Of a DNA stretch of 64,000 nucleotides, positions 40,389 through 58,760 are shown piece by piece. Source of the stretch: Deltaproteobacteria bacterium (GTDB taxonomy: Bacteria; Desulfobacterota; Binatia; HRBIN30; JACQVA1); assembly GCA_016210005.1 (NCBI GenBank), contig JACQVA010000158.1:75180-139179 (forward strand), read 5' to 3'. The notes under the pieces were generated by a model. The model made no database searches. It saw only the letters and a list, made by a program, of their open reading frames with translations, and was not told the DNA's origin. Both the position numbers and the translations under genes were made by a program. The number at the start of each line of letters is the position of its first letter. Within the stretch, counting starts at the first letter, position 1.

Positions 40389-42272
40389 ATGATCAAGGGA
40401 TACGCGGGTCGCGTCCTCGAAGTCGATCTGGCAAATCAGCGCTTCGCCTTCAAGCCGCTCGATGAGGACATTGCTCGGCTCTATATCGGCGGCAAGGGTT
40501 ATGGCACCCGTTTGCTCTACGACATGACGGCGCCGGGCATCGATCCGCTGGGGCCGGAAAACCCGCTGATCTTCGCCACCGGCCCGCTCAACGGCTCGGT
40601 GGCGCCGCAATCCAACCGCTTCACGGTGGTGTGCAAGAGCCCGCTCACCGGCGGCATCGGCAACGCCGCCTGCGGCGGCTCGTTTGCGTACGGCCTCAAA
40701 CGCGCCGGCATCGACGTCCTCGTGCTCACGCGCCAGTCGGCGAAGCCCGTGCGTCTCGAAATCGACGGCGACCGTGACACGGTCAGTTTCATCGATGCTG
40801 CCGGCCTTTGGGGCAAAGGCACCTACGCGACGCAGGCGGCGTTGGGCAAGAAGCAGCACCACGCGGTGATCGGACCGGCGGGCGAGAACAAGGTCCTCTA
40901 CGCCGGCATCGTCTCCGAGGAGCGGATCGCGGGGCGCACCGGTGTCGGTGCGGTGATGGGCTCGAAACGGCTCAAGGCCATCTCCGTCAACGGCACGCGC
41001 AAGCTCGAGATGGATGACCCGGAGAAGTTCAAAGCCTACACCAAGTGGGTCCGCGAGCTGTTCCGCGAGCACCCGATGCTGGGCGAGAATCTCAAACGGT
41101 TTGGCACCGCCGGCATCGTCAACACCACCAATGCCCGCAACATCATCCCCACGCACAACTTCAAGTACGGCCATTTCAAAGACGCCATCAGCCTCTCCGG
41201 CGAGTACATGGAGGAGCACGAGCTGGTCGGCGTCAAGTCGAGCTGCATTCACTGCCCGGTGACCTGCGGTCGCGATGTCATGGTCGAGGGCGTCGGCCGG
41301 GTCAAAGGCCCGGAGTACGAAACCATCGGGTTGATGGGCACCAACCTGGAGATCGCGGATCTGAAGCAGGTCTCGGAGTGGAGCTACCTCGCCGACGATC
41401 TCGGCATGGACACCATCAGCCTCGGCGCCACGCTGAGTTTCACCATGGAACTCCAGGAGCGTGGCCTACTGGAAGCCGGCTTGCGTTTCGGCGACCCCAG
41501 CGGCGTGAGCGAGATGATCAAGGACATCGGTCATCGGCGCGGGCTGGGCAATGACCTTGCCGGCGGCGTCAAGCGCATGAGCGAGCAGTACGGCGGCAGC
41601 GAGTTCGCCATGCACGTCAAGGGGCTGGAGCTGTCGGCCTACGACCCGCGCGGCTCGTTTGCGCAAGGGGTCGAATACGCCACCAGCAACCGCGGCGGCT
41701 GTCACATTCAGGGTGCCAGCATGTACATGGAGTCCACCGGCCCACTAACGATCAACCCGCAGAACTTGAAGCTCAAGGCCGAGCTGCCGGTCATCCAGCA
41801 GAACCTGGCCTGCGCCATCAACTCCATGGTGCTGTGCATGTTCACCACCTACGGCATCGTGCCCAAAGCCGCGCACGCTTTGAACCCCAACTCATTGCTT
41901 CACAAAGCCATCACCACCGTGTTCGAGAACAGCGGGCCGGTGTTCCGCACGGTGATGGGCATCAAGGGGCGGCCGATGCTGTGGTTCGAGAAGTGGCTCA
42001 CTTACATCACCGGCCAGACCTTCTCCTCCGGGCATCTGCAAGAGATCGGCGCCCGCATCTTCAACCTCGAACGCATGTACAACCTGCGCGAAGGCAAGAG
42101 CGCCCAAGACGACACCCTGCCCGCGCGCATGCTCCACGAGCCGATCTTCAAGCACATGCAGTCCGGCCATCCGCTCGCGCAACTGCTGCCGCGCTACTAC
42201 AAGAACCGCGGCTGGGACGCCGCCGGCGTACCGACCAAGCGGACCCTGGAGCGGTTGCAGGTGAGGGTGTGA
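40389..42272 (+). CDS. Aldehyde:ferredoxin oxidoreductase (tungsten/molybdopterin AOR family)
   Basis: MIKGYAGRVLEVDL...YIGGKGYG...GPLNGSVAPQSNRF... conserved AOR N-terminal and C-terminal domains; 627 aa. Confidence 0.85.
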   Translation: MIKGYAGRVLEVDLANQRFAFKPLDEDIARLYIGGKGYGTRLLYDMTAPGIDPLGPENPLIFATGPLNGSVAPQSNRFTVVCKSPLTGGIGNAACGGSFAYGLKRAGIDVLVLTRQSAKPVRLEIDGDRDTVSFIDAAGLWGKGTYATQAALGKKQHHAVIGPAGENKVLYAGIVSEERIAGRTGVGAVMGSKRLKAISVNGTRKLEMDDPEKFKAYTKWVRELFREHPMLGENLKRFGTAGIVNTTNARNIIPTHNFKYGHFKDAISLSGEYMEEHELVGVKSSCIHCPVTCGRDVMVEGVGRVKGPEYETIGLMGTNLEIADLKQVSEWSYLADDLGMDTISLGATLSFTMELQERGLLEAGLRFGDPSGVSEMIKDIGHRRGLGNDLAGGVKRMSEQYGGSEFAMHVKGLELSAYDPRGSFAQGVEYATSNRGGCHIQGASMYMESTGPLTINPQNLKLKAELPVIQQNLACAINSMVLCMFTTYGIVPKAAHALNPNSLLHKAITTVFENSGPVFRTVMGIKGRPMLWFEKWLTYITGQTFSSGHLQEIGARIFNLERMYNLREGKSAQDDTLPARMLHEPIFKHMQSGHPLAQLLPRYYKNRGWDAAGVPTKRTLERLQVRV

Positions 42273-42455
42273 GGGGACGAGAAGACGGAGACGGACAAGA
42301 CTACAACGGATTGGACGGATTGCGGGGGCGGGTCGTGCAGCTTGGCCGCGCGCGCCCTCGGCCGTCCTGTCCCCCGCCGTTTTGATCTTTCGCACTATCC
42401 TGAGCTATGCAGTGACGGACAGCCCATCTTTGGGGAGGTGCTCAGGAGACCGCAG

Positions 42456-42632
42456 ATGCCGCGAATCTTCGACAACATCGACCAGTCACTGCTCCCGGCC
42501 CTGCGCGAGACGATCGAAGTATCTGACCGCGCCGACTTCTGCGTCGGCTACTTCAACCTGCGCGGCTGGGAGCAGATCGAGCGTTGCGCACGGGGTGAAC
42601 CCGACAAGTGGGCCGAGCGATGCCATTGCTGA
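42456..42632 (+). pseudogene. Truncated N-terminus of a PLD-like domain / helicase gene
   Basis: [41 protein letters not shown] is the characteristic N-terminus of PLD-helicase proteins; ends after ~58 codons where hsdR begins. RBS AGGAGA upstream. Confidence 0.45.
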
Positions 42633-45280
42633 ACGAGGCCGATACTCGCGCAAAGCTGATCGACCCAAAGATCAAAGCGGCTGGCTGGGGCGAGAGTCAG
42701 ATTGAACGCGAGCACTTCGTTGTGAAGGGAAAGGCCTTCACGGCAGGTCGGATCTACCTTGTTGGCGAGGAGTCTCGTCGTCGGTCGCCGCGACGTGCCG
42801 ACTACCTGTTCCGCATTCACAACGCGCTGGCGATCGCGGTTCTTGAAGCCAAGGACGAGTCGCACAGCGTCGATGCTGGCCTTGAGCAAGCCAAGGGCTA
42901 CGCGATGACGCTCGGGCTCCCGTTCGCCTACTGCAGCAACGGGCACGGCTTCGTAGAGTTCGACTTCTTCCTGAATCGTAGCCGGGAACTGGCAGTGTTC
43001 CCTGGTCCAGAGGACCTCCTGAGTCGCTGGCAGGCGCAGACCGGACATTCCAGGCTCGACGCCACCCTTGATAGGGCGGCCGAGGAGCAGGAGCGCACCG
43101 GGGGATTTGGCGGTCCACCACCGAGAGATCCGGTTCTTCAGCCACCGTGTCCGCAATCCGTCTGCGGCAAAGAGCTGCGCTACTTCCAGGAGGTTGCCGT
43201 CGAACGCGTGCTCAAGCGGGTGGTAGCCGGTCAACGGCGCATCTTGCTCACGATGGCGACTGGAACGGGTAAGACCTTCACCGCGTTTCAGGTTGTCTGG
43301 AAATTGAAGAAGTCGGGCTGGCTCAGAAAGCCGATCTTGTTCTTAGCTGACCGAATCGTGCTGCGCGATCAGGCCTACAACAACTTCGCACCCTTCGTAG
43401 ACGACCAGTCCGATCCACGCTCCATCATTCGAGGCGGGAAGTGGAACCGCAACCGTGACCTTTATTTCGCCTTGTACCAGGCGCTCGACTCGGGCGACGG
43501 CGCGGAGCCGCTCTTCAAGAGCATTGCGAAGGATTTCTTCGGCCTGATCATCATTGATGAGTGCCACCGTTCCGGGTTCGGCAAGTGGAACAACATCCTG
43601 CAGCACTTCAGCGACGCAGCTCAGCTCGGCATGACCGCGACGCCGAAACGCTCCGAGAGCATTGACACCTACGACTACTTCTGCCGCGAAGAGCCCGAGG
43701 TGCCGATCGATCCTGACGACCCGTCGAAGGGAACCTGGAACCCACCCGCCTACCAGTACAGCCTTGGCCAAGGCATCGACGATGGGTTCCTCGCCACGTA
43801 CAAGGTTCACAAGGTCCGAACGACCGTGGACAAGACCGGCTTGCACGTACAGGACGCCCAGACTCAGGGCGCCGAGATCTATGTGCCGGAGGGTGCGGAG
43901 CTACGCGACGTGTACCTCACACCACAATTCGAGCGCGAGATCTCGCTGCCCGACCGCACCGAGGTGATGGTGAACCACCTCGCTGGTCTCTTGCGCCGGT
44001 TCGGCCCGCGCGAGAAGATGATGGTCTTTTGCGTCGACATCGAACATGCACGGCTCGTGTCGCGCCTGCTGCAGAACGCCTTCGCAGATCTGGGCGACCC
44101 GCAGTACGCTGTGCCGATCGTGTCGGAAGAGGGTGACGCGCTCACCTGGCTGGAGCACTTCCAGGACAGCGACAAGAAGAGCCCGGTGGTGGCAACCACG
44201 GCGGAACTGCTGTCCACGGGCGTCGACGTTCCCGCTTGCCGGAACATCGTCTTCATGAAGACCATCTCGTCACCGCTTCTCTTCAAGCAGATCATCGGCC
44301 GCGGTTCCCGGGTGGACCCGAGCACCGGGAAGGAATGGTTCCGCATCATCGATTACGTCGGCGCGACACGTCTCTTCGATAAATGGGATCGGCCGCCCGG
44401 CGAGCAACCACCGGAAGTGAGCGGCGCGCGCACGGCTAAGATTGAAGGCACAGTGGTGGATGCAGACTCCGGTGCATTGATCGTCGGGGCGTCGGTCAGT
44501 GCACTGATTGGCCCCAACGAACAACAGGGGCCGTTTCGCACCGACGGCGAGGGCTGCTTCCACTTCACGCAGCTCCCCGCGGGGACGATTCGTATCTCAG
44601 TCAGCGGTGCTGACTATCGGCCGCGGCAGGTATCGGTCGAGACCGAGGCGGGCAGCGTGCAGACAGTCACCATCGAGCTCAAGACGCAAACTGGTCCGGT
44701 GGAGAAGATCCGAGTGCAGAATCTCACCGTGACCATTGCCGACGAAGCGACGTTCATGATCGAGAGCACCGGACAGCAGCTCACGCTCTGGCAGTACCTC
44801 GACTACACACGACAGAAGGTCGTCGGGCACGTGCCTGATTGGGCTAGGCTGCACGAGGTGTGGACCGATCCGGCGAAACGCGAAGCCTTTCTCTTCGACC
44901 TCGAAGCTGAGAGCGTCCACGCTGAAGTGCTGGCGGAAGTGCTGAACCAACCGCGAGCCGATCAATTCGACCTCTTGGCGCACATCGCCTTCGACAGACC
45001 GATCCGCACGCGTGACGAGCGCGCGGAAGGGTTCGTGAACTACGAACAGCACTTTCTCAACACCTATGATGCGAAGGCGCGCGAGGTCGTCTTGGCATTG
45101 CTCGACAAATACCGTCTCAGCGGGGTGACGGAGATCACCAGCCCCGATGTCTTCCGTTTGTCGCCGTTCCGTGAAATGGGGCAGGCACCCGGTGTCATCG
45201 AGCGCTTCGGTGGCGCGGAGTCATTGCGGCAGACGCTGACTGAGATGCAGCAGCGCTTGTATAGAAAGGAAACGGCATGA
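42608..45280 (+). CDS. hsdR: Type I restriction endonuclease R subunit
   Basis: N-terminal [15 protein letters not shown] nuclease region, helicase motifs [10 protein letters not shown] and IIIDECHRS, 890 aa. Confidence 0.85.
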
Positions 45281-46815
45281 GCCGCGAGCAACTGGCGAAC
45301 GACATCTGGCGCGCCTGCGACATCATGCGGCGCGACAACAACTGCGGCGGCGTCATGGAGTACCTCGAGCACCTCTCGTGGGTGCTCTTCCTGAGATTCC
45401 TCGATGAGCAGGAGACGATCTTCGAGGCAGAGGCCGGCATCGCTCGGCGCAAGTACACGCGCATCCTCTCGGGGCCGTACCGCTGGTCGAACTGGGTCAG
45501 CTCGGCGTTGGGCGAGAAGGACGAGAAGACCGGCAAGCGAAAGTCGCCGAAGTGGACGGCGGAAGACCTGCTCCGGTTCGTCCACGGCGACCTCCTGCCG
45601 CACCTGCAGAGCTTGTCTGGCTCGCCCGAGCGCGAGGTGATCAAGGGTATCTTCTCCGACCGCAACGTCATCGTGTGCGCGTCGCCGTACAATCTGAAGG
45701 ACGTGTTGGAGATCGTCGACGGCATCGACTTCACGAACCAGGACGACATCCACACCGTCTCGCACGTGTACGAAGGGCTGCTCCAGAAGCTCGGCAACGA
45801 GAACAAGCTCGCCGGCGAGTTCTATACGCCGCGACCGGTGATTCGGTTCGTCGTCGACGTGGTAGCCCCACAGCTGGGCGAAACGGTGTACGATCCCGCA
45901 GCTGGCTCCTGCGGCTTTCTTGTACAGGCGTACGAACACATGAAGGGTCAGGAGAAGAGCCGTCGCGACCACGGGCGCCTGCAGCGCGAGACGTTCGTCG
46001 GCCACGAGAAGAAGTCGGTGCCAGCGCTGCTCGGCCTGATGAACATGGTTTTGCACGGCGTGATGACCCCCGACATCCGGCGGCGGAACACTTTGGAAGA
46101 AAACATCCGGAGCGTGTCCGAGCGTTTCGACGTTGTGCTGACCAACCCGCCGTTCGGCGGCACCGAGAACGCGCAGATCCAGCAGAACTTCCCGGTGAAG
46201 TCGAACGCGACTGAGCTGCTGTTCATCGAGCACGTCATGAAGAAGCTGAAGCCGCGTGACGGCGCGCGTTGCGGCATGGTCGTCCCAGAGGGAACGCTCT
46301 TCCGCGGCGGCACGTTCGCCACGGTAAAGGCGGACCTGCTCAAGGACTTCAACCTCCACACCGTCGTCAGCCTTCCGCCGGGCACGTTCGCGCCATACTC
46401 CGACGTGAAGACCGGTCTGCTCTTCTTCGAACGTCCCGGCCCGACGAAAGAGACGCTCTACTACGAGCTATCCATTCCGGAAGGCCTGAAGAAGTTCAGC
46501 AAGGGCAGTCCGATCGCCGATGAACACTTCGCCGAAGCAGGCGAGGTGTGGCGGTGTTGGGATGCCTACCGTCGCGGCAACGGGCGCAGACCAAAGCCTA
46601 CCGAGAGTGCCTGGATCGAAACTGCCGAGGCTCTGGCGCAGCGCGGCTATGACCTGTCGGCCAAGAACCCGAACCGCCCCGAAGGCGCCAAGCTCCCGCA
46701 CCCAGCGGAACTCACCGCGAGCCTTCTCGAACGGAACCGTGAACTGCATGCGATTCTCGAAAACCTGCATGCGATGTTGAGTAACGGTGAACAAGAGGCA
46801 GTTGAGGGGCCATGA
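45277..46815 (+). CDS. hsdM: Type I restriction-modification N6-adenine DNA methyltransferase M subunit
   Basis: FYTPRPVIRFVV, DPAAGSCGF, VLTNPPFGG motifs; ATGA overlap with hsdR. Confidence 0.9.
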   Translation: MSREQLANDIWRACDIMRRDNNCGGVMEYLEHLSWVLFLRFLDEQETIFEAEAGIARRKYTRILSGPYRWSNWVSSALGEKDEKTGKRKSPKWTAEDLLRFVHGDLLPHLQSLSGSPEREVIKGIFSDRNVIVCASPYNLKDVLEIVDGIDFTNQDDIHTVSHVYEGLLQKLGNENKLAGEFYTPRPVIRFVVDVVAPQLGETVYDPAAGSCGFLVQAYEHMKGQEKSRRDHGRLQRETFVGHEKKSVPALLGLMNMVLHGVMTPDIRRRNTLEENIRSVSERFDVVLTNPPFGGTENAQIQQNFPVKSNATELLFIEHVMKKLKPRDGARCGMVVPEGTLFRGGTFATVKADLLKDFNLHTVVSLPPGTFAPYSDVKTGLLFFERPGPTKETLYYELSIPEGLKKFSKGSPIADEHFAEAGEVWRCWDAYRRGNGRRPKPTESAWIETAEALAQRGYDLSAKNPNRPEGAKLPHPAELTASLLERNRELHAILENLHAMLSNGEQEAVEGP

Positions 46816-48101
46816 CCTTGGGAAACGGCGCAGCGAGTGTGGCCGCAGTTCCACCGGCGGCTGATCGAGAGGCGCGCGGCGCGCCCTGGGAACTACCGTG
46901 GGGTTGGGAGTGGATTCCGCTTGGAGACCTCTGCCACCTGGTTAACGGGCGGGCCTTCAAGCCGAGCGAGTGGTCGGATGTGGGGCTCCCTATTGTTCGG
47001 ATTCAGAACCTGAACGATCCTTCGAAGCCCTTCAACTACTTCAATGGGGAGCCGAGCCCGAAACACCTCGTCAACGATCGCGACGTCCTCATCTCCTGGT
47101 CCGGAACGCCGGGCACGTCGTTCGGCGCGTTCCTGTGGAACCGCGGCAGGGCACTCCTGAACCAGCACATCTATCGAGCGGACCTCGACCATGAACGAAG
47201 CGAACCATTGTATCTCGTCCACGCCGTGAACGTGAGGCTTGATGAGATGATCCGACGCGCGCACGGCGGAGTGGGCCTGGGACACATCACCAAGGGCGAA
47301 CTCGAACGAGTCCGTCTCCCGATTCCGTTTCCGCAAGAGCCAGAACGATCCCTGGACGTCCAGCGCCGCATCGTGGCGCGGATTGAGGCGCTGCTGGCCG
47401 AGATGAAGGAAGCCCGTGCCCTCGCCGAGGACATCCGCAGCGACACCGACCGGGTCATGGATGCTGCGGTGGAGGAAGCAATGTCCCAGTTGGGGCCGGG
47501 CAGGCAGGCACTGATTGAGGTGCTCGACGGAAAGCCACGAAATGGTTGGTCGCCGCAATGCGACAATGATCCGGCCGGCGCGCCCGTGCTAAAGCTCGGT
47601 GCCGTGCTAGGCTTTCGCTTCAACCCAGGGGCGATCAAGTACACGAACATCAAGGTCGACCGCAAAGCTCACTACTGGCTGAACCCCGGCGACATCCTAA
47701 TCTCACGGAGTAACACCCCGGATTTGGTGGGCCACGCGGCCATCTACGGCGGGGAGCCGCATCCCTGCATCTACCCAGACCTGCTCGTGCGTATGCGCGT
47801 CAGAACTGATGCGGCAGACGCACAGTTCGTCGTCTACTGGTTGCGCAGCAGGGAGGCGCGCGAATACGTCGCCGCGCACGCCAGCGGCGCGAGTTCTACG
47901 ATGAAGAAGATCACGCAAGGCGATGTCTGTGAGCTGCCGTTCCCGTACGTCTGCGTCGAGTTGCAGCGAGCAATCGTGGCGCAGCTCGACACGGTCCAAA
48001 CCGAGGTCAACGAAATGTGCCGACTGCAAGCTCATGACGCGGAGTTGCTCGATCAGGTGGAGCAGGCGATCCTGGAGCGGGCGTTCCGGGGAGAGCTGTG
48101 A
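46812..48101 (+). CDS. hsdS: Type I restriction-modification specificity subunit
   Basis: Two target-recognition-domain halves with conserved central and C-terminal helices (...LQRAIVAQLDTVQTEVNEMCRLQAHDAELLDQ); overlaps hsdM stop. Confidence 0.85.
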   Translation: MTLGNGAASVAAVPPAADREARGAPWELPWGWEWIPLGDLCHLVNGRAFKPSEWSDVGLPIVRIQNLNDPSKPFNYFNGEPSPKHLVNDRDVLISWSGTPGTSFGAFLWNRGRALLNQHIYRADLDHERSEPLYLVHAVNVRLDEMIRRAHGGVGLGHITKGELERVRLPIPFPQEPERSLDVQRRIVARIEALLAEMKEARALAEDIRSDTDRVMDAAVEEAMSQLGPGRQALIEVLDGKPRNGWSPQCDNDPAGAPVLKLGAVLGFRFNPGAIKYTNIKVDRKAHYWLNPGDILISRSNTPDLVGHAAIYGGEPHPCIYPDLLVRMRVRTDAADAQFVVYWLRSREAREYVAAHASGASSTMKKITQGDVCELPFPYVCVELQRAIVAQLDTVQTEVNEMCRLQAHDAELLDQVEQAILERAFRGEL

Positions 48102-48191
48102 TTACGGCAAACGATCGAATACATCTTCGCATCTCCGGGAAGACCCAAGCCTCGCCATGTGGTACGAGGAGGGGCCAATGAGGACAGGCGA

Positions 48192-48992
48192 ATGACAGGG
48201 GCAACACCTCAGGTTCGTCTTATAGAGGCGTACCGTGCACCGGTTGGGCCGGCACGAATGCTGGGCCGGAGGACCGAGTCGACGCATGAGACCCGCCGAT
48301 ATCTTCAACGCCGCGTCCGGGAGCGACTGCGCATCGCTTCCAGCGAGCGGCAGATTGAAAGCTACGTTGATGAGCTTCGAGCCACTGGCTTCGATGTAGG
48401 TGGCATCGCAGCGGCAGCTCAGCAGAGCCCACCGCGCCCCTGGGAAATCGGTGAGGCGCTGGCTGAAACCCTCCTGGAGGATCACGAAGAAGCGTACTTT
48501 CCGTGGCCACCAGCGTGGGACAAGCGCACTGAATCAGCGAGCCTGCAGGGTCCAGACTTGGTTGGCCTACACGCGCCGAACCGAGCCCCGCGGCTGCTGT
48601 TCGGCGAAGTGAAGACCTCGTCGGATGTGGACGCGCCACCGAGTGTGGTGACCCATCGAGACGACGGTCTCCGGAGTCAGCTCCTGCGGATTGTCACGTC
48701 TGAGCGGCGTCGGCAGACACTGGTGGCCTGGCTCTCGGTGCGAGCTCGCAACCAAAGTTGGCAGGGAGCATTCAATGCAGCGCTTCGCGCTTATCTCGGG
48801 GACCCCAGTAACGCCGTTGTGATCGGCGTGCTACTGCGAGATACGTCGCCGACCGAAAGAGACTTGGAAACCGTCAAGTCGGCACTCGATGCGTGCGCTA
48901 CGACCTTTGAGCTAGCAGTGCTCGCCTTCTATTTTGCGCTGGCCATCAAGGAGTGGCCGGAGGCCATCACTGGCACAGAGGACGCTCCGTAA
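48192..48992 (+). CDS. PD-(D/E)xK-like protein, candidate Hachiman HamA (DUF1837-like)
   Basis: GPDLVGLHAPNRAPRLLFGEVKTS resembles a D...E-V-K nuclease motif; ~267 aa; stop overlaps the start of the downstream helicase (TAATG). Confidence 0.45.
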   Translation: MTGATPQVRLIEAYRAPVGPARMLGRRTESTHETRRYLQRRVRERLRIASSERQIESYVDELRATGFDVGGIAAAAQQSPPRPWEIGEALAETLLEDHEEAYFPWPPAWDKRTESASLQGPDLVGLHAPNRAPRLLFGEVKTSSDVDAPPSVVTHRDDGLRSQLLRIVTSERRRQTLVAWLSVRARNQSWQGAFNAALRAYLGDPSNAVVIGVLLRDTSPTERDLETVKSALDACATTFELAVLAFYFALAIKEWPEAITGTEDAP

Positions 48993-51900
48993 TGCCACCG
49001 CCTACTGAGGCCCTGGCCAGTTCAACGCTCCGAGAGGCATTCGGAACGGAGCGATATCGGCAAGCCCTCGGAGCATCGCGGGCGTGGTTGCTGCGCTCCG
49101 TGCTGGATCAAGTTGCCGCGGGCGATTCGTCGCAACTCGCAACGCTAGTAGACGAGGATGCGCTTCTGATTGAGAGAGCTCTCGCCGTAGCGGAGCTGTC
49201 GGCTTTAGAGCTGTTGGACGAATGGGCCAATGATCCAAAGGGACGCCGGGCCGCGTTATTTCGTGAGGCAGCGAGCGATGCATTTTATCTGGCCCGCGCG
49301 GTTCCGCTTCCACCCGACACAGATGAGGCCCTAAAAGCGTTCCTGCGCCTCGTGTCTTTTGCTGTTCTTGGAGACCGATCTGCGGATGCGCGTCGCTGGT
49401 TGCACGAGCATCCGTGGCCGAAGCCTGATTCGGATGCGCCGTGGGACGCGCGGGTGTTCCAGTTTGCCACCGACGCCTTCCTGCGAGTCGTTCGCAAGGA
49501 GGGCTGGCAGGATCTCCATCAGGTGGCCAAGGCAATTGGAGAACTCCGAACCCTTCAGACGACTTTCGAATCGTCCCATCTTAAGGACAGTGGCGACTGT
49601 GTGGATCGAGCCGCCCTCGAACTCGTCTCTCTCTATCACTTTGCGAAAGCCGTGGAGACCTTGGCCTCATATGCTGCGAAGGGTACGCCGACAAGTGTAG
49701 TCGATGAGCTGAAGTTCCATTACGCGCGTTCGATTCGGGCTGCTGGTGCCGCTGCGATCTTCGAACTGGAGATCCTCCTCCGATGGGTGCGTGCTGCGTG
49801 CCTCCAGGTTGCGCAGAACTCGGTCTGGTGGCTGCTCCGATCCTTCAATTCTCAGATCTCTCAGCACGTTCGGAACCTCGCCGCAGAAGCAAACGACCGG
49901 CCTCTACTGGAGCTGCTACCGCCGCAACGTCGAGCGCTACTCGACGAAGGGCTCCTTGATCCTGCCAACCGAGCGGTAGTTGTCGAAACACCAACGTCGA
50001 GCGGCAAGACGCTCCTCGCCGAGTTTCGGATTCTTCAGGCCCGGAACAGCTTCCCCAAGTGCTGGGTTGCCTACCTCGTGCCCACACGTGCTCTCGTGAA
50101 CCAGATATTGCTGCGCCTGCGTCGTGACCTGGGGCCACTGGGTATCCAAGTAGAGAGTGCGACTCCAGCCATCGAGATCGACGTCTTCGAGGAGGAGCTT
50201 CTGGTTGTGGCAGACGAGGTCGATGTTCTCGTGACCACACCGGAGAAGCTGGACCTGCTTGTGCGGAGCCGTCAACGCGGTCGACCGCTTGGTCTCGTTG
50301 TTCTTGATGAGGCCCACAACCTGGGCGAGGGTGAGCGCGGATTGCGTGCTGAACTTCTTCTCTCCACTCTGAACCGAGAATGCCCCGACGCCCAGTTTCT
50401 CTTGCTGACGCCCTTCGTACCGAACGCTAGCGAACTGGCAACGTGGCTAGACGAGCAGCGTTCAAAAGCGATCGTCGCGCTTGATTGGCAGCCAAACGAC
50501 TTCACTGTTGCCTACGCCTACGCAACGGGCCAGCGTCGCAGCTGGGAACTTCGCCTACGAACGCTGCACACGAGCCGCCCGGGTATAGAACTGGACGAAG
50601 AACTGGTTCTATCAGGGACGCCATCGCCTCTTGATATCCCCGTGTCGAAGGCTCGATCAAAGAGCGCGACAGCGGCTGCGATTGCGAAGTCTCTGTCGTC
50701 GCGCGGCACAGTCATTTTGCTCGCGTACTCCCCCCGGGACACTTGGAGCATTGGGGAACTGCTGTCGAAGAACATGCCCGACGTTGATCCTCCAAAGGAT
50801 CGAATCGATCTGGTTCAGCGATTCCTGGCCACTGAATTGGGCAGCGACTTTCAGCTTTCTGCTCTGCTATCGAAAGGCATCGCCGTGCACCATGCGGGGC
50901 TGCCTCCCGATGTTCGGTTCTTGATTGAATGGCTTGCCGAGGAGGGAGAGATTCGGGTTCTTGTGGCGACGACGTCACTCGCCCAAGGCGTGAACTTCCC
51001 GGTTTCGTCTGTCGTCCTCGCTACGCATCAGCTGTATCAACCGTACGCCGGCCGCCAGGCCATGGCGCCGGCAGCGTTCTGGAACATCGCCGGGCGAGCT
51101 GGGCGAATCTTTCAAGAGACTCTTGGGCTCATCGTTTTCGCTTCTGTGGACGAGGAAGCCAAGGAGATCAGGGAATTCGTCGGACAGAACGTGACACAGC
51201 TCGCTTCGACCCTTGAAGCGATGGTTGAAGAGGTTCTGCAGCGCGGATGGGACCTCAACCTTGCGTCACTCGTCCGCAGCGATCGGCGCTGGTCTAGCTT
51301 CGTGCAGTATCTGGCACATGCCTATCGGTTGGCGGCCGACCATGGCAAGTTCATCGCCGATACAGAGAAGCTACTTCGAGGCACTCTCGGCTATCGCCGT
51401 CTGGCCGAGTCGCGACCCGTCGTTGCAGAGCAATTGGTCGACTCTGCCCGAGCCTACGCGGAGACATTGGCGAAGATGGGGCCGGGCATCGTGTCGCTGG
51501 TCGATACCACCGGTTTCTCCGGAGAATCGATCTTGGAACTGCTGTCCCGCAAGGAGCAGATTCCCAGCGACCCGACAGCATGGGTGCCGGGGAAACTCTT
51601 CTCCGGCTCAGTGAACGAGCTTCAAGGTATCATCGGGGCGCTCCTGCCGGTTCGAGAGTTACAGTTCGAGGCAGGTGGTGGAGCTGGGGGAAATGAGATC
51701 GCCACTGTGATTTCAAAGTGGGTGCTCGGGCGTTCCATCCGGAACATTGCCGAAGATCACTTCCAGGATGGTGGTGACATCACTGCGGCCATAACGGAAT
51801 GCTGTCGTGGGCTCTTCCAGCGACTGATCCAGCCCGCAGCATGGGGCCTCGGCGCGGCGCAAGCTCTCGCCAGCATCGACACGGCCACGCTCTCTCCTGA

Positions 51901-52189
51901 GCAGGTCGAGGAGGTACGAACGCTACCAGCAATGGTCTATTACGGCGTGGACACGGTTCCTGGCGTGCTTATGCGATCTCTCTCCGTACCGCGCTCTGTG
52001 GCGGTACCGCTAGGTGAACGATTTGCGAGGGAGACTGCGGGAGGAACGGGGCCGCGGTTGCCACGGGCGCGCATATGGCTGGAGCAGCAGCCTGTGGCCA
52101 CGTGGGAAGCCGTGCGGCGGCAGGCTGCGGCAGTATCCGGAGCCGACTACCGACGAGTGTGGCGAATATTGGCCGGTCTGGACCGGTAG
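48992..52189 (+). CDS. SF2 Ski2-like DEAH-box helicase, candidate Hachiman HamB
   Basis: Walker A VVVETPTSSGKT, DEAH box LVVLDEAHNLG, helicase C motif VLVATTSLAQGVNFP; 1066 aa; translationally coupled to upstream gene. Confidence 0.65.
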   Translation: MPPPTEALASSTLREAFGTERYRQALGASRAWLLRSVLDQVAAGDSSQLATLVDEDALLIERALAVAELSALELLDEWANDPKGRRAALFREAASDAFYLARAVPLPPDTDEALKAFLRLVSFAVLGDRSADARRWLHEHPWPKPDSDAPWDARVFQFATDAFLRVVRKEGWQDLHQVAKAIGELRTLQTTFESSHLKDSGDCVDRAALELVSLYHFAKAVETLASYAAKGTPTSVVDELKFHYARSIRAAGAAAIFELEILLRWVRAACLQVAQNSVWWLLRSFNSQISQHVRNLAAEANDRPLLELLPPQRRALLDEGLLDPANRAVVVETPTSSGKTLLAEFRILQARNSFPKCWVAYLVPTRALVNQILLRLRRDLGPLGIQVESATPAIEIDVFEEELLVVADEVDVLVTTPEKLDLLVRSRQRGRPLGLVVLDEAHNLGEGERGLRAELLLSTLNRECPDAQFLLLTPFVPNASELATWLDEQRSKAIVALDWQPNDFTVAYAYATGQRRSWELRLRTLHTSRPGIELDEELVLSGTPSPLDIPVSKARSKSATAAAIAKSLSSRGTVILLAYSPRDTWSIGELLSKNMPDVDPPKDRIDLVQRFLATELGSDFQLSALLSKGIAVHHAGLPPDVRFLIEWLAEEGEIRVLVATTSLAQGVNFPVSSVVLATHQLYQPYAGRQAMAPAAFWNIAGRAGRIFQETLGLIVFASVDEEAKEIREFVGQNVTQLASTLEAMVEEVLQRGWDLNLASLVRSDRRWSSFVQYLAHAYRLAADHGKFIADTEKLLRGTLGYRRLAESRPVVAEQLVDSARAYAETLAKMGPGIVSLVDTTGFSGESILELLSRKEQIPSDPTAWVPGKLFSGSVNELQGIIGALLPVRELQFEAGGGAGGNEIATVISKWVLGRSIRNIAEDHFQDGGDITAAITECCRGLFQRLIQPAAWGLGAAQALASIDTATLSPEQVEEVRTLPAMVYYGVDTVPGVLMRSLSVPRSVAVPLGERFARETAGGTGPRLPRARIWLEQQPVATWEAVRRQAAAVSGADYRRVWRILAGLDR

Positions 52190-52249
52190 CGCCAGCCAGG
52201 GGCCGCGTGCATGACCGGGGTGGAGTTGCAGCAGGCGATGTCTGCGAAT

Positions 52250-52392
52250 CCCCTTTCCAACGGGTCGGCGTGGACGAGCAGCGTGCTTTCGTCGCGCTCG
52301 ATGCCGTCAACGGGGAGGTCGACGAGATGTGCCGCCTGGAGGCCCGGGACGTCGAACTGCTCATCCAACACCTTCAGCGGGGAGTTGTAAGT
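52250..52392 (+). pseudogene. hsdS C-terminal remnant (~45 codons)
   Basis: ESPFQRVGVDEQRAFVALDAVNGEVDEMCRLEARDVELLIQHLQ parallels the hsdS C-terminus ELPFPYVCVELQRAIVAQLDTVQTEVNEMCRLQAHDAELLDQVEQ at 47930-48070. Confidence 0.5.
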
Positions 52393-53400
52393 ATGGCAAC
52401 GGCGGAACAGGTGAAGGCCCTCTTGAAGAGCTACTCGCAGGGCGACAGCGAGCACTTCGTCTCCGTTGCGCTCCAGATCGCCGCGCATGAGGCGCGTACC
52501 GGCAAGGGCAAGCTTGCACAGGAGCTCCGGAACCTCGTCGACGACATCAAGCGAAGAGATGCGGCGGGCAGGATTGGTGGAGCCGTGCCGATCGCGAGGC
52601 CGACGGGGGAACTGGCGGGCCTCCTGGCAGTGACCTATCCAAAGCCCCGCCTTTCGGAGATGGTCCTCAGCGACAAGACATGCGAGCAGGTCGAACGCGT
52701 CCTGCGCGAGTACCGCCAACGCGACAAACTGCGCGCACATGGCCTCTCCGCTCGTCGCAAGCTCTTGCTGATTGGACCGCCTGGCTGTGGCAAGACGATG
52801 ACCGCATCTGTCTTGGCCGGCGAGCTGAAACTGCCGCTCTTCTCTGTGCAGCTCCACGGGCTGATCACCAAGTTCATGGGCGAGACGGCGGCCAAGCTGC
52901 ACGTGGTGTTCGAGGCGATGAGACAGACGCGTGGCGTCTATTTCTTCGACGAGTTCGACGCCATCGGCGCCGATCGCGGCACCAAGAATGACGTCGGCGA
53001 AATCCGGCGCGTCCTCAATTCGTTCCTCCAGTTCCTGGAGCAAGATGACTCCGAGAGTATCATCATCGCCGCAACCAACTACGTCGGCATGCTCGATGAG
53101 GCGCTGTTTCGGCGCTTTGACGACGTCATCCGCTACGGGCGACCTGCAGACCGCCAGGTTGACGATCTCGTGCGCAACCGGCTCGCGGGGCTTCTCGTGA
53201 AACGACCCGACTGGGCACACATTTGCAAAGCCGCGGCTGGTCTGAGCCACGCTGATATTGCCCGCGCCTGTGACAACGCGGCCAAGGACTGCATCCTTCG
53301 CGGGACAAAGCGCATCAACACGGCGATGCTTGCCTCGGTTCTCGGCGAACGTCGCGGTTCGGAGCACTCTGAGGGCGCTCACGATTCGCGCGTCGGCTGA
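52393..53400 (+). CDS. Classic-clade AAA family ATPase
   Basis: LLLIGPPGCGKTMTA Walker A, VYFFDEFD Walker B, second region of homology; start MATAEQVKALL. Confidence 0.75.
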   Translation: MATAEQVKALLKSYSQGDSEHFVSVALQIAAHEARTGKGKLAQELRNLVDDIKRRDAAGRIGGAVPIARPTGELAGLLAVTYPKPRLSEMVLSDKTCEQVERVLREYRQRDKLRAHGLSARRKLLLIGPPGCGKTMTASVLAGELKLPLFSVQLHGLITKFMGETAAKLHVVFEAMRQTRGVYFFDEFDAIGADRGTKNDVGEIRRVLNSFLQFLEQDDSESIIIAATNYVGMLDEALFRRFDDVIRYGRPADRQVDDLVRNRLAGLLVKRPDWAHICKAAAGLSHADIARACDNAAKDCILRGTKRINTAMLASVLGERRGSEHSEGAHDSRVG

Positions 53401-53574
53401 TCATGGCCAACCTGCCGCATCTCTTTCCGCCGGGAACAGCGGCCGCCAAACAGTACACCTACGCTCGGGAGGTCAAAGGTAGGCCACTCAAGGTCCCAAC
53501 TCGTGATCGCGTACCACACGGGACCAAGCTGATCCACGGCCTACGAGACGCGGAACAACAACGAACAGCTCTAC

Positions 53575-53744
53575 ATCCGCACCGGCAACTCGACGCGGTT
53601 GCTGACGACGAAGGAAGCCATCGACTACTGCAAGAGTCGGTGGAAGATAGCATGATGGTGCGGCACTACGGCTTCACGGACGAGGAGTTCGACCTTTTCG
53701 CCAACTACGTCATCAGGTACCGCCTGGACGGCGAGGCGGACTGA
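53575..53744 (+). repeat. Repeat A1: degenerate AlbA_2-gene 3-prime fragment + downstream conserved ~85 bp
   Basis: ...YIRTGNSTRLLTTKEAIDYCKSRWKIA* then tgatggtgcggcactacgg...; ~90% nt identity to A2/A3. Confidence 0.7.
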
Positions 53745-54931
53745 TGCCGCGAAAACCCGCCAAGGTGAAGACATCCGAGCATGGCCTGAACTTCACCGCC
53801 CTGGTCGAAGCGGTCCGGCAGGTGCACGAGCGAAGCGCCGCCACAGCTGCTCGTGCGGTGAATGTGAGCCTCACCCTGCGTAACTGGCTCATCGGGCGGC
53901 ACATCTGCGAGTACGAGCAGCGCGGTGCTGACCGCGCCGAGTACGGCGACCGTCTGCTGGAGCGGTTGGCCGAGGCGTTGCGCCGGAGGGACGCGGACAT
54001 GTCCGCCCGATCACTCCGGCTCTACCGCCAGTTTTACCTCGTCTATCCCGAGATTTGGCAATCGGCGATTGCCAAGTCCTCAGGCAGCCACTTGTCGGAA
54101 CCGATTTGGCGGTCACTGATTGCCAAATCCAGCACAAGCGGTCTTTTCCGGGAACCGACGACTCCCAAATCAAAGACATCCCGACGACTGGGGATTGATG
54201 GGCGCCTGCTCATCGCTCGGCTTTCGTTCACCCATCTGGCTGAACTCATTGCCATCGACGACCCACTCAAACGCGCCTTCTACGAGGTGGAATGCATTCG
54301 CGGCAACTGGTCGGTGCGGGCGCTCAAGCGCCAGATCGCGACCCTGTACTTCGAGCGCTCGGGGCTCTCCACCAACAAGGAAGACCTTGCGGCGCTGACC
54401 CACGGCGCCGCCGAAGAGGCCGAGCCGAAACTCGCTATTCGTGACCCCTATGTTTTCGAGTTCCTCGGCCTTCGGCCAAAGGAGGCGGTCAGCGAATCCG
54501 ACCTGGAGGATGCCCTGCTCGACAAGCTGCAGGACTTTCTCCTGGAACTGGGCCACGGCTTCTGTTTCGAGGCGCGACAGAAGAGCATCGTCATCGGCAA
54601 GACGCGCGGCTTTGTGGACCTCGTCTTCTATCACCGCGTTCTCAAGTGCCATGTGCTCATCGAGCTGAAGGTCGACGAGTTTCGCCACGAACACCTTGGC
54701 CAGCTCAACACCTACGTCACCTGGTGTCGGCGGCACATGATGGCCGAACACGACAACCCGCCGGTGGGCCTGCTGCTCTGCACGCAGAAGGACCATGCTC
54801 TGGTGGAGTACGCGCTCGCCGGCATGGACAGCGGCCTGTTCGTCTCCAAGTACCAGCTCGAACTGCCGAGCAAGGAAGACCTGAGGCGTTTCCTGGAGGA
54901 AAAGCGCCGGGAGATGAACGACCGTGGATAA
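53744..54931 (+). CDS. DUF1016/YhcG-family PD-(D/E)xK nuclease domain protein
   Basis: C-terminal GFCFEARQKSIVIGKTRGFVDLVFYHRVLKCHVLIELKVDEF restriction-endonuclease-like core; 395 aa. Confidence 0.7.
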   Translation: MPRKPAKVKTSEHGLNFTALVEAVRQVHERSAATAARAVNVSLTLRNWLIGRHICEYEQRGADRAEYGDRLLERLAEALRRRDADMSARSLRLYRQFYLVYPEIWQSAIAKSSGSHLSEPIWRSLIAKSSTSGLFREPTTPKSKTSRRLGIDGRLLIARLSFTHLAELIAIDDPLKRAFYEVECIRGNWSVRALKRQIATLYFERSGLSTNKEDLAALTHGAAEEAEPKLAIRDPYVFEFLGLRPKEAVSESDLEDALLDKLQDFLLELGHGFCFEARQKSIVIGKTRGFVDLVFYHRVLKCHVLIELKVDEFRHEHLGQLNTYVTWCRRHMMAEHDNPPVGLLLCTQKDHALVEYALAGMDSGLFVSKYQLELPSKEDLRRFLEEKRREMNDRG

Positions 54932-55496
54932 ACATTGCCTTGCCCGAGGGGGGGATCTCTATCCGGACATCTTGTGTACCCGCCTTGGAGAAGACGCACC
55001 AGCAACGCTCACGGCAATCGGCTCCCTGGCACATCTCGCCCAACGCAAGACAGCGCTCTTCTGCTCCGCGCGCACCCCCGGCCACATCATCCTCGCCGCC
55101 TACGACCAGGCCGCGCGCTGGCGCGACGCGGGCCGCTGCGTCATCAGCGGCTTCCATTCCCCGGTGGAGAAAGAATGCCTGCGCATTCTCCTGCGCGGCC
55201 GGCAACCCGTCATCATCTGCCTCGCTCGCGGAGTGGAGGGTATGCGCCTGCCGGCCGAATGGAAAGCGGCGATGGCGGACAACCGATTGCTGGTCCTGTC
55301 GCCGTTCCCCGCATCGGAACGACGGGTGACCAAGAGCCTGGCCACGGACCGCAATCGACTCGTGGCTGCTCTAGCCGATGAGGTCGTGTTCGGCCATATC
55401 ACACCGGGCGGCCACCTGGATGAATTGAGGTGGCTCATTGTTAGCTGGCGAGTTCCCCAGCGCGTGCTCTCGGATGGAGCCGAGCTACCGTCATGA
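54924..55496 (+). CDS. DprA/Smf-like SLOG Rossmann-domain protein (stand-alone)
   Basis: ALFCSARTPGHIILAAYDQAARWRDAGRCVISGFHSPVEKECL...DRNRLVAALADEVVF matches the DprA Rossmann core; overlaps the DUF1016 gene by 8 nt. Confidence 0.6.
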   Translation: MDKHCLARGGDLYPDILCTRLGEDAPATLTAIGSLAHLAQRKTALFCSARTPGHIILAAYDQAARWRDAGRCVISGFHSPVEKECLRILLRGRQPVIICLARGVEGMRLPAEWKAAMADNRLLVLSPFPASERRVTKSLATDRNRLVAALADEVVFGHITPGGHLDELRWLIVSWRVPQRVLSDGAELPS

Positions 55497-55790
55497 ACAC
55501 CGTCGGCAAAGACCTCACCCCCCAACTCGCCATCACCTTCCACTCCCTCGATGGCAAAGACCTCTGCCGCGTCACCATCCAACCCAGCCCGCGGCCGGTG
55601 TTCATCAAGGAAGGCCAGTTCGAGCACCTGTACATCCGCACCGGCAACTCGACGCGGTTGCTGACGACGAAGGAAGCGATCGAGTACTGCAGGACGCGGT
55701 GGAAGACAGCGTGATGACGCGGCACTGCATCAACTACGACATCAAGTACCGCATGGGCGGCGAGGCGGAGGCCGAGGACGAATGACCTAC
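55493..55790 (+). repeat. Repeat A2: AlbA_2 (Schlafen-like) domain C-terminal fragment ORF (73 aa) + downstream conserved segment
   Basis: MNTVGKDLTPQLAITFHSLDGKDLCRVTIQPSPRPVFIKEGQFEHLYIRTGNSTRLLTTKEAIEYCRTRW; start overlaps DprA-like stop (ATGA). Confidence 0.7.
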
Positions 55791-56033
55791 ACGTTGACGG
55801 CGCATGCGAAGAGGGTGCTGGCGGAGAGGGAGATCCGGCTCGATTGGCTCGAACGCACACTGAACGATCCGGTGTTGCGCCGACCCGATCCGGACGATAC
55901 TTCGATCGAGCGTCTCTATCGCCCGATCCCTGAGTTCGGTGGGCGGGTGTTGCGCGTGGCGGTGAACTCCACGGTTGCACCGGCCCGCGTCGTGAGCGTA
56001 TTCTTTGACCGGAGCATGAGAGGCAAACTATGA
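55782..56033 (+). CDS. DUF4258 family protein (putative toxin)
   Basis: MTYTLTAHAKRVLAEREIRLDWLERTLNDP... DUF4258 pattern; 83 aa. Confidence 0.55.
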   Translation: MTYTLTAHAKRVLAEREIRLDWLERTLNDPVLRRPDPDDTSIERLYRPIPEFGGRVLRVAVNSTVAPARVVSVFFDRSMRGKL

Positions 56034-56311: not shown

Positions 56312-56866
56312 ATGACCCCGTTGACCGTTGTGGCCGGTGCTCCCAGCTACCCAGATCGATTGCGAGAGCGCCTGGGTGCAGACGCGCCCGCGGAGCTGAG
56401 GTTGGTGGGCAACCTCGACGGGCTGGACCTGCCGAAGACAGCGCTCTTCTGCTCCGCGAGCAGTCCGGGTCACACCATCCTCGCCGCCTACGACCAGGCC
56501 GCACGCTGGCGCGACGAGGGCCGTTGCGTCATCAGCGGCTTCCATTCCCCGGTGGAGAAAGAATGCCTGCGCATTCTCCTGCGCGGTCGACAACCCGTCA
56601 TCGTCTGCCTCGCTCGCGGATTGCAAGGCATGCGCCTGCCGGCCGAATGGAAGCAGCCGCTGGCGGACAATCGGTTGCTCATCTTGTCGCAGTTCCCCGC
56701 CGCGGCGCGACGGGTCACCAAGGACCTCGCCACCGACCGCAATCGCCTCGTGGCGGCGCTGGCGGACGAGGTCGTGTTCGCGCACGTCGCCCCGGGAGGG
56801 CAGGTTGATGAATTGAAGCAGCTCGTCACGCGCTGGGGCATCCCGTACCAAACGGTCGTAGGATGA
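56312..56866 (+). CDS. DprA/Smf-like SLOG Rossmann-domain protein, paralog of 54924-55496
   Basis: ~85% aa identity to the first copy over the Rossmann core (KTALFCSASSPGHTILAAYDQAARWRDEGRCVISGFHSPVEKECL...). Confidence 0.6.
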   Translation: MTPLTVVAGAPSYPDRLRERLGADAPAELRLVGNLDGLDLPKTALFCSASSPGHTILAAYDQAARWRDEGRCVISGFHSPVEKECLRILLRGRQPVIVCLARGLQGMRLPAEWKQPLADNRLLILSQFPAAARRVTKDLATDRNRLVAALADEVVFAHVAPGGQVDELKQLVTRWGIPYQTVVG

Positions 56867-56950: not shown

Positions 56951-58108
56951 ATGGATTCCGGAACGCCAACGCTGCGCTCTCGCGAGCGTTGGTACCGCAA
57001 GCTGGCGCGCCGTCCCGAATACGCTGCCGGCGTCACGCTGTTGGGATTATTGGCGGGGGTGCTCGGCTCTGTCTACAGCGCAGACATCGGGCGCGCGTTC
57101 CCATTTTCATGGATTGGTGGCACGGTTCCATAGCCGCCCGCTCTCTTCTGGGGCGCCGCGATCCTCACCGCCCTGTTCTTCTTTCTGCGCCAGGGAGCCA
57201 TTGACGCTGCTCGCCGAGAATCGGAGGAGAACCTCGGGCGTCGTTCGGATGAGCTGGTGAAGCTGATTAGCACCCTCCCTCCCAAAGGGTTTTTCTCCAC
57301 GTTCCAGCGATTGTACTGGCATTGCAGTGCCGTGCTGACAGATGTCCTCAACGTGCCGGCCGAAGAGCTGCCTGCTGCATCCGTTGAACGCGCGATTCGA
57401 ATCGTACTGAGTGAGGTTGCAGCGCTGGCGCATGACTTCGACGGCAGAGCCAGGGACGTGTTGTACGCTGCCAACATCATGCTGTTTCGGCCTGGCGAAT
57501 CGCTGCCCTCAGGAAGGACGGCATTGACCGAACGCCTACGCTTTGCCGAACCCGAAACCGACCTGACCGCCCTGGAAGGCGTCCTGGATCTGTGCGTGGA
57601 GCTTTCGACCACCACGCAAGCGGAAGACTACGGCCCCGATAAGGATCTGCAACCGATGGCGCTGCCTGTGCCCAGAGTCAAACGTAGCCCCGATGGGCGG
57701 CGAAGCCGCGTACTGCCGGGAGCGCCGCGCGCATATTCTGAACGTCTGTTGGACATTTACGCCGACACGCACACCCTGGGACAATGGTGCCGCGAGAAGG
57801 GCGACTTCAGCGAGACCGTGTGCACGCAGGTCGATGACTACTTCCGCAGCCAGCAGTCAGTGCGCAGCTTCGTGGCGGTTCCGCTGATGCAACTGCGCGA
57901 CGCGCGACCCCTGGCGGTGTTGAACATTCATCGCAACAGCGAGGGAATCCTGCGAACGAGAGCGGGATCGGACCCCGAGGTTTTGGATCAGTTCTCCGCT
58001 CTGCTCGGTCCGTTTTCGTCGACGTTGCTCTTGTTGCTGGCGCGCCTGGATCGATCGACGGCGCTCGGCGCACCATCTGTGTCGGGCAGCCAAGGGGTGC
58101 GGCATTAG
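56951..58108 (+). pseudogene. Membrane-anchored protein (2 TM + ~320-aa soluble domain) interrupted by an in-frame TAG at 57131-57133
   Basis: ORFs 56951..57133 and 57257..58108 are in the same frame; the sequence between (PPALFWGAAILTALFFFLRQ...) is a second TM helix. Alternatively a soluble protein starting at ATG 57257. Confidence 0.4.
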
Positions 58109-58351: not shown

Positions 58352-58760
58352 GTGCGCGCATTCGCGCCTCTGATCGGCGTCAACGACGACGCCACGGTCA
58401 TCGGCCTGCAGTACGATTACCAGGCCGTCCACAAGAAGAGCCGCGACGGCTACGAGCTGTTCCTCCATGACCTGTTGCTCAACAACGTCGGCAAAGACCT
58501 TACCCCGCAGCTCGGAATCACGTTCCACTCGCTCGACGGCAAAGACCTCTGCCTCGTCGCCATCCAACCCAGCCCGCGCCCGGTGTTCATCAAGGAGGGC
58601 CAGTTCGAGCACCTCTACCTCCGCAACGGCAATTCGACGCGGTTGTTGACGACGAAGGAAGCGATCGACTACTGCAAGACGCGGTGGAGGTCGGGGTGAT
58701 GCTTGCAGACGCAGCCGAGATCCCCTACCGCACGGGCCGCGGTGCAAATGGGGCGGCCGG
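58352..58760 (+). repeat. Repeat A3: longest AlbA_2 C-terminal fragment ORF (115 aa) + downstream segment
   Basis: LIGVNDDATVIGLQYDY...VFIKEGQFEHLYLRNGNSTRLLTTKEAIDYCKTRW. Confidence 0.7.

Follow-up and report, generated by a model that had tools for sequence, protein, structure and literature searches.

Hachiman has been characterised in Escherichia coli ECOR31 as a two-gene system, HamAB (PDB 8vx9), in which the helicase holds the nuclease inactive and releases it for indiscriminate DNA degradation at damaged DNA (PMC12278908). Defence genes are also known to reside within type I restriction-modification (R-M) operons, as do TgvAB inside the VPI-2 type I R-M system of Vibrio cholerae (PMC11411939), and defence-island hot spots are known that accommodate variable cargo between conserved flanks. 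A Hachiman-like nuclease-helicase pair, a type I R-M operon and the gene ends of further defence systems meet in the interval 42456-53400 of the window analysed here, i.e. a 64,000-nucleotide (nt) stretch with 62% G+C from a 174.5-kb contig of a metagenome-assembled genome (MAG), available from NCBI as 'Deltaproteobacteria bacterium' (locus tags HY699_154xx). The interval constitutes the left two-thirds of a defence island of about 17 kb (about 42.4-59.6 kb), which lies downstream of an aldehyde:ferredoxin oxidoreductase (AOR) gene (40389-42272) and has all its genes of interest on the + strand.

We consider it likely that the island arose through serial replacement within what was once a system of three genes, encoding a helicase, a methyltransferase (MTase) and a DprA-like protein. 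The old system would survive as the leader and the first ~48 codons of the helicase gene, as the last ~30 codons of the MTase gene (in two copies) and as DprA-like genes, and between its old ends there would now stand hsdRMS, the Hachiman-like pair linked to the upstream hsdS tail, a relic of another hsdS, and IetA with a probable truncated IetS. The genes, their completeness and order, and the scars between them were located directly, on DNA that has also been assembled independently, and both the linkage of the pair to hsdS and the filling of the wrecked older system with other cargo recur elsewhere. This is an ordinary defence island with an unusually readable record of turnover, in which nested gene ends record the order of events and new systems sit in an old frame, probably borrowing its promoter; it demonstrates no new mechanism. 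Defence genes embedded in R-M operons were already known, Hachiman had been characterised and the family of the pair, PDC-M23, had been catalogued. What we add is modest: the assignment of PDC-M23 to Hachiman at the level of the fold, its pronounced and recurrent linkage to type I R-M systems, and the repeated overwriting of the helicase/MTase/DprA-like set.

Remains of a helicase-methyltransferase-DprA-like system

The left end of the interval is an open reading frame (ORF) of 58 codons closed by TGA (42456-42632). In tblastn searches against plasmids it matched the very N-terminus of proteins of 1109-1156 amino acids (aa) annotated as 'helicase-related' or 'phospholipase D-like' (22 records, E down to 1e-15), which are HKD+Snf2 (C3a139) in PADLOC, and over 42 aa it has 88% identity with the beginning of an intact gene of 1129 aa in locus L099 (L-numbers denote individual related loci from our genome or metagenome scans). 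On these matches we regard it as the 5' stub of a gene for an HKD (phospholipase D, PLD)-SNF2 helicase. The homology reaches about codon 48-52: residues 1-48 of the Pelobacter propionicus protein correspond to 42456-42611 (E 5e-12), ending 9 nt before the hsdR ATG at 42620, which places the joint within ~10 nt of the start of hsdR; the TGA of the stub (42630-42632) overlaps the hsdR start region. A preliminary description of this DNA had stated that hsdR starts where a PLD-helicase gene is cut after ~58 codons, and the extent of this homology bears it out. The stub is preceded by a non-coding leader (42395-42455) that is conserved in another stub locus, L009; the two leaders share the pattern TTTTGATCTT..ATCCTG.GCT.TGCAGT.ACG upstream of the ATG, and we presume that the leader contains the promoter or 5' untranslated region of the old helicase gene.

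The counterpart of the stub lies beyond the interval, at 53646-53744, where positions 1068-1095 of the 1100 in the PADLOC profile PDLC03628 match the end of a 113-aa ORF (53403-53744). In P. propionicus, the gene after that of the helicase encodes a 1089-aa MTase that scores 874 bits on the same profile, and in a tblastn search this MTase matched both 53646-53726 (E 2e-4) and a second copy at 55723-55782 (INYDIKYRMG). Since the last ~30 codons of this type IIG-like MTase survive there, the block of ~11 kb that extends from hsdR as far as the IetS stub appears to have replaced the interior of a helicase/MTase/DprA-like system, in keeping with the earlier suggestion that the block displaced the body of a PLD-helicase gene. 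The two ends in the window thus match those of sets composed of an HKD(PLD)-SNF2 helicase (C3a139) and a type IIG-like MTase (REase_MTase_IIG, PDLC03628), and DprA-like genes follow. However, with helicase homology that stops at residue 48 and an MTase represented by its C-terminus only, i.e. with ~48 and ~30 surviving codons, the locus is a wreck of such a set rather than a member.

A metagenome scan with an alignment of the stubs returned 80 loci, of which 41 were cut by contig ends; among those that could be judged, in this unbiased sample, intact helicase genes outnumbered truncated ones by 24 to 15. Where the sequence suffices, the normal state is a helicase of ~1130 aa and an MTase of ~1085 aa, often with a DprA-like protein of ~180 aa. 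The intact three-gene architecture was present in at least 23 metagenome loci, and the DprA-like gene follows the MTase gene in L099, L106, L107, L128, L156 and L171. We found no description of this set, nor of a function for it, in the literature search made, and the present analysis delineates it as a set that is often wrecked and overwritten.

Several related loci exhibit the same kind of wreck with other contents. In L140 the stub is followed by an unrelated type I R-M system (its hsdR product is 27% identical to that of the window), AbiEi/AbiEii, RadC and then an MTase 3' stub. The stub precedes hsdM in L166, a C-terminal fragment of Druantia DruD and DruE in L167 (88-2662, with a helicase stub of 70 codons), and MNT-HEPN and then a DprA-like gene in L011; in L170 a DprA-like gene comes first and a different type IIG enzyme after it. 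In L123 (464-926) the stub is fused to the MTase tail, and a full AlbA_2-HATPase_c_4 gene and a DprA-like gene come next, while in L118 (68-532), L097 (6385-7194) and L152 the 5' part of the helicase gene is joined directly to the MTase tail. As the breakpoints differ between loci, these arrangements arose independently.

The fusions in L118, L097, L152 and L123 are in frame or nearly so and retain the last 40-80 codons of the MTase gene, the right end of the deletion recurring in the same short 3' region. Three helicase-family ORFs recorded from different sources, designated P0123, P0125 and P0197 (including Tectomicrobia and Entotheonella), all terminate at one and the same residue (...CCRLLVGM, 62 aa), beyond which the intact genes read on into QRLP, and several further short ORFs of the family are frameshifted right after the WSGG codons. 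An apparent enrichment of short stub-like ORFs was considered and discarded: all 120 among the matches listed were 43-102 aa long, and several that were inspected proved to be frameshifted or cut copies of normal genes.

The type I R-M operon and the Hachiman-like pair

The genes that follow the stub, identified as hsdRMS in the preliminary description, all give full-length profile matches. The hsdR gene (42620-45280) encodes a type I restriction subunit of the EcoAI/FtnUII family, which scores 688 bits on NCBIfam NF046051 against a cut-off of 550 (covering 4-882) and matches ResIII, CarboxypepD_reg and EcoEI_R_C of Pfam. Its exact product, starting at ATG 42620, is recorded on the Logan contigs L176/L177; a start at GTG 42608 was rejected, for it yields no exact recorded product. 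The hsdM gene (45277-46815) matches N6_Mtase (2e-57) and HsdM_N (1e-12) of Pfam, and MTase_I of PADLOC over its full length (3e-139). The product of hsdS (46812-48101, 429 aa) is covered by the PADLOC model Specificity_I over 32-429 of 429 (or in two stretches) and matches Methylase_S of Pfam; it is a full-length HsdS with two target-recognition domains and the conserved helices, including the C-terminal one. Both hsdR/hsdM and hsdM/hsdS overlap by 4 nt. As a whole, hsdRMS is a complete, translationally coupled type I R-M operon of the EcoAI family (type IB-like). The CarboxypepD_reg domain, an Ig-like beta-sandwich, is inserted at 44450-44700 (HsdR residues 612-692), between the helicase core and the EcoEI_R_C tail. 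Such a carboxypeptidase-regulatory-like domain is unusual in a type I R subunit.

A spacer of 90 nt separates hsdS from the two genes of the pair, which overlap as TAATG, in the arrangement reported earlier of a PD-(D/E)xK-like gene overlapping a gene for a Ski2-like DEAH helicase. In PADLOC, both are matched by the profiles of a candidate system, PDC-M23, a name that we did not find in the literature searched: the nuclease gene (48192-48992, 266 aa) by PDC-M23A (E 4e-61, covering 25-273 of a 277-aa ORF) and the helicase gene (48992-52189, 1065 aa) by PDC-M23B over its full length (1159 bits, 30-1075). The preliminary description had proposed Hachiman and suggested a comparison of the small protein with DUF1837/HamA. 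At the level of sequence this part of the proposal failed, as the Pfam family HamA/DUF1837 (PF08878) gives no match in the small protein at E <= 1; weak Pfam HamA matches occur in 4 of its 73 relatives (best 6.6e-5), and a precomputed PF08878 match is on record for some relatives that are 33-42% identical. At the level of the fold the proposal holds. An AlphaFold (AF2) model built from 73 homologues (pLDDT 90, pTM 0.88) had as its only significant Foldseek matches in the PDB the HamA structures 8vx9_A and 8vxy_A (for 8vx9_A: E 2e-6, TM 0.63, 262 columns, 16% identity). D122, E139 and K141 are invariant across the family, and by their numbering and position E139 and K141 may correspond to E138 and K140 of E. 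coli HamA, the pair mutated in 8vxy. In the large protein, the HamB profile of PADLOC matches the helicase core at 2e-62, residues 302-723 align to 301-722 of HamB in 8vx9_B (E 7e-31), and it groups with HamB and Ski2-like helicases, apart from Lhr/HrpA.

The pair thus resembles Hachiman in the order of its two genes, which here overlap, in a small protein predicted to have the HamA fold over its whole length together with the D...ExK triad, and in a Ski2-like DEAH helicase whose core occupies the same residue positions as in HamB. It differs in that the small protein is 16% identical to HamA and escapes the Pfam HamA/DUF1837 model, and in that PADLOC lists the pair separately, its function here being predicted. 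The modelled structure indicates that PDC-M23 is a divergent form of Hachiman. By analogy with E. coli HamAB, we presume the same mode of action, in which the HamB-like helicase would restrain the HamA-like nuclease until it senses damaged or free-ended DNA, with indiscriminate degradation as the consequence (PMC12278908).

A scan of species-representative genomes for the pair family returned 80 loci, in 77 of which the helicase gene adjoins the nuclease gene (of the three exceptions, two are truncated by a contig end or close to one). The most frequent neighbour by a wide margin is hsdS, which is the immediate upstream gene in 14 of the 69 loci that could be scored; hsdR lies directly downstream of the pair in 3 loci, and other orders include hsdS-x-pair, hsdM-pair-hsdS-hsdR (L080) and pair-hsdM-hsdS (L017). 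Altogether, type I genes are close by in about 26 of 83 pair loci, and when the helicase cores are clustered by sequence, the R-M-linked loci fall into four clusters, interleaved with unlinked ones. In the two closest clusters of the helicase core, the pairs of L007, L014, L016, L018 and L019 have as neighbours large genes for proteins of ~830-970 aa; DUF499 was confirmed in those of L007 and L014, and L007 also has a gene for a DinG-like helicase upstream. These neighbours hint at a second recurrent partner system of PDC-M23.

The linkage to type I systems is far above chance and offers a lead on cooperation between restriction and an abortive system that senses DNA damage. Like TgvAB, the pair is a second, mechanistically different module placed in or beside hsdM/S/R, an embedding that recurs across taxa and whose module is also found alone. 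However, the module here is Hachiman-like and not a type IV enzyme, and it comes after hsdS, the last gene of an R-M-S operon, rather than splitting the operon, although split forms exist among the relatives (L080). It is tempting to go further and consider the pair as a functional partner of the type I enzyme in a two-layer system with shared regulation, with the HKD-SNF2/MTase ends as a recurrent landing frame. This idea draws on the presence of the linkage in roughly a quarter to a third of the species-level loci, in four clusters and with several hsdS families and gene orders; we put it forward tentatively and hold it to be doubtful. If it were true, the trigger of the helicase would be the DNA ends or stalled translocation complexes that arise from the type I enzyme or from phage anti-restriction.

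Proposed order of events and alternatives

The preliminary description had noted that, right after the helicase, a segment of ~45 codons resembling the C-terminus of HsdS runs in frame into an AAA ATPase. Both the segment (52233-52365) and the ATPase gene, IetA (52393-53400), are there. The segment begins 43 nt after the helicase stop, comprises 45 codons and is truncated at both ends, lacking its own last ~15 codons and stop codon. Against codons 367-415 of the resident hsdS, BLASTP gives 30 of 49 identities (61% aa, E 2e-15), and the nucleotide alignment with the resident tail scores 60, as compared to 19 +/- 2.3 in shuffles; a protein search with the 53-aa relic yielded no homologue. It had been called a duplicate of the resident tail, which is not tenable. 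As the two are ~70% identical in nucleotides, with the longest identical run being 12 nt, the relic appears to be the leftover of an older, different hsdS.

IetAS is a defence system against plasmids and phages that consists of an AAA+ ATPase and an S8 protease. IetA of the window is matched by the PADLOC model from ATG 52393 onwards (3.6e-72, profile positions 2-325 of 374), with GGGGAG as its own ribosome-binding site 8 nt upstream; on the NCBIfam IteA model it scores 198 bits, below the cut-off of 510. It is 63% identical to a 334-aa plasmid ATPase of Paludisphaera, whose gene is followed after 3 nt by that of an 826-aa S8 peptidase. The probable 5' stub of IetS (53403-53560, ~52 codons) opens 3 nt beyond the stop of IetA, a spacing also found in intact operons, and is assigned by its position and by weak colinear similarity; profile searches found no peptidase domain in it, and tblastn against plasmids found no match. 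Further on, the same ORF passes into an AlbA_2 fragment and the MTase tail. IetA here is thus full length, but with some 52 codons of IetS the system is incomplete; it is probably dead, and IetA alone probably does nothing.

It could be argued that the hsdS-like segment and the ATPase form a real fusion protein, in which the segment serves as a functional extension at the N-terminus. They are in frame with no stop codon between them, and one gene caller placed the start of the ATPase upstream, giving 397 aa, while the product from 52393 is absent as a recorded one. Yet the IetA profiles begin at the ATG with its own GGGGAG, the closest IetA has its 334 aa without any extension, and what the segment retains is a piece of a coiled-coil helix that lacks its domain, which makes a fusion protein hard to credit. 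A model closer to the preliminary description would have the pair alone insert into the resident hsdS by homologous recombination at its 3' end, duplicating the tail and leaving the relic as the end of the original gene. In its favour, the relic stands directly after the pair, and its left end falls near the beginning of the distal conserved region of hsdS; L067 has, 1.8 kb beyond its pair, an hsdS tail relic of 15 codons that has 84% identity over 70 nt with the tail of the hsdS in L067 itself; and in L006 and L058 the pair is preceded by hsdS tail stubs. On the other hand, relic and resident tail have diverged too far to stem from a recent duplication or to recombine efficiently by homology, and the relic is cut on both sides. 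Moreover, L006 holds the closest relative of the pair (67% and 79% identical in aa, 72% in nt), beside acyl-CoA metabolism genes and with no R-M genes nearby, and its tail stub, ~20 codons just upstream of the nuclease gene, is 84% identical to the resident hsdS tail, from which it appears that tail and pair were already linked in the common ancestor and that the resident tail arrived with the pair. Insertion of the pair alone is therefore unlikely, and the incoming piece would have been at least the hsdS tail plus the pair, possibly the whole of hsdRMS plus the pair. What stands of the earlier intuition, that entry took place within the 3' region of hsdS, is that hsdS tails seem to be found repeatedly at the joints of pair loci.

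The ends of the old system might also be seen as a docking frame, or hot spot, in which cassettes are swapped by homologous recombination between the helicase 5' and MTase 3' ends. At least 10 loci keep a stub of ~40-110 codons with differing cargo, several of them together with the MTase 3' end, and 8 of the 15 truncations in the metagenome sample end before codon 130. A DNA-level recombination site or an RNA element within the stub was considered and rejected, because in 23 intact genes the synonymous sites of the first 45 codons are as saturated as those of the rest (third-position entropy of 1.78 vs 1.71 bits) and the first 114 nt have a mean pairwise identity of 71%, which leaves no conserved DNA element and a poor substrate for homologous recombination. 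The breakpoints vary by locus, and short contigs favour the detection of short stubs; where at least 3.9 kb follows the start, only 3 of the 7 truncations belong to the short class. Such a detection effect accounts for part of the excess of short stubs, which is otherwise a matter of repeated trimming or of a retained useful promoter and start region, explanations that fit the skew equally well. We therefore find a docking frame improbable. The locus does resemble a hot spot in that differing systems occupy the same frame in different genomes, but its flanks are the gene ends of a defence system itself, not core or prophage genes, and there is no integrase.

Finally, the mosaic could be a chimera created in the assembly, as the source is a MAG and as the Logan contigs end at 42562-42565 and at 53601, both within sequence that is conserved or repeated. 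In the runs SRR12113401 and SRR12113390, contigs that start at 42536 independently cross the joint between the tail of the stub and hsdR, the longer one reaching hsdM (42536-46894), and a further contig from one of these runs is 100% identical to 45316-53601, i.e. it runs from hsdM through hsdS, the pair, the relic and IetA to the IetS stub. The AOR-bearing contigs stop at 42562 and 42565, overlapping the hsdR contigs by ~30 nt. The internal structure of the block is thus sound, and only the link from AOR to the stub depends on the assembly of the MAG; that the whole is a chimera is exceedingly improbable. Since contigs break on both sides of 42536-42565, another sequence in the community must carry that 30-mer; the break indicates a k-1 de Bruijn graph branch, and the second sequence is possibly an intact allele.

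Serial replacement inside the old system remains the account that we prefer, and several points weigh against it. The link between AOR and the stub crosses the branch of ~30 nt at 42536-42565, which falls in conserved codons of the stub. The scan of species-representative genomes found neither a sister genome with an intact helicase gene nor one with an uninterrupted older hsdS at the site; the source is a MAG, outside the species representatives scanned, and neither its species nor a sister genome was among the results (best match 49% identical), so that the order and number of events are reconstructed from the scars alone. The assignment of the IetS stub relies on weak colinear matches to two IetS N-termini (E 0.85 and 0.005). 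PDC-M23 is a candidate system, and the activities of the pair and of the R-M enzyme are read from sequence. A consensus scan detected no sigma-70 match in the leader, but scans for promoter and terminator consensus in the window are uninformative at its G+C content, and this result bears on neither side.

Under serial replacement, the joints would have arisen by recombination that was illegitimate or relied on very short homology, with no dedicated recombinase at work; profile, RNA and repeat scans revealed no recombinase, integrase, transposase, tRNA or inverted repeats in the interval. The RNA gene scan detected no tRNA or Rfam family in the whole window, which makes an integrative element targeting a tRNA gene unlikely. 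The array would be read from the old helicase promoter, with translation of the stub ORF coupled to that of hsdR, and the type I enzyme would methylate self DNA and cut unmodified DNA after translocation. The locus is a clean, independently assembled example of the turnover of defence islands.

The right-hand end of the island

Beyond the IetS stub, a 3' fragment of an AlbA_2/Schlafen-domain gene (53562-53650), recognised by the repeats D1 and D3 and by frame translations, precedes the first MTase tail, and a second copy of the same combination of AlbA_2 fragment and MTase 3' end is found at 55493-55785 (repeats D1, D3 and D4). Further AlbA_2 fragments lie at 58352-58699 and 59358-59578, and the longer copies match SLFN_AlbA_2 of Pfam. 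The four direct repeats of the AlbA_2 3' end are 70-90% identical to each other, and after two of them come the last codons of the MTase gene. They look like nested leftovers of repeated overwriting, and they indicate that the frame formerly housed an AlbA_2 gene, which was in turn overwritten on more than one occasion.

Between the copies, at 55782-56033, 57257-58108 and 58761-59099, there are a 283-aa ORF without a family match and small genes with DUF4258 and DUF6883 domains, which belong to toxin-antitoxin-like families. The first of the two DprA-like genes (54924-55496) matches DNA_processg_A of Pfam and is PsyrA-like in PADLOC, and the second (56312-56866) is 83% identical to it in nucleotides over 300 nt. 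Outside the interval yet in the same island, profile searches also detected an intact gene for a YhcG-type PDDEXK nuclease (53744-54931), which PADLOC lists as PDC-S02.

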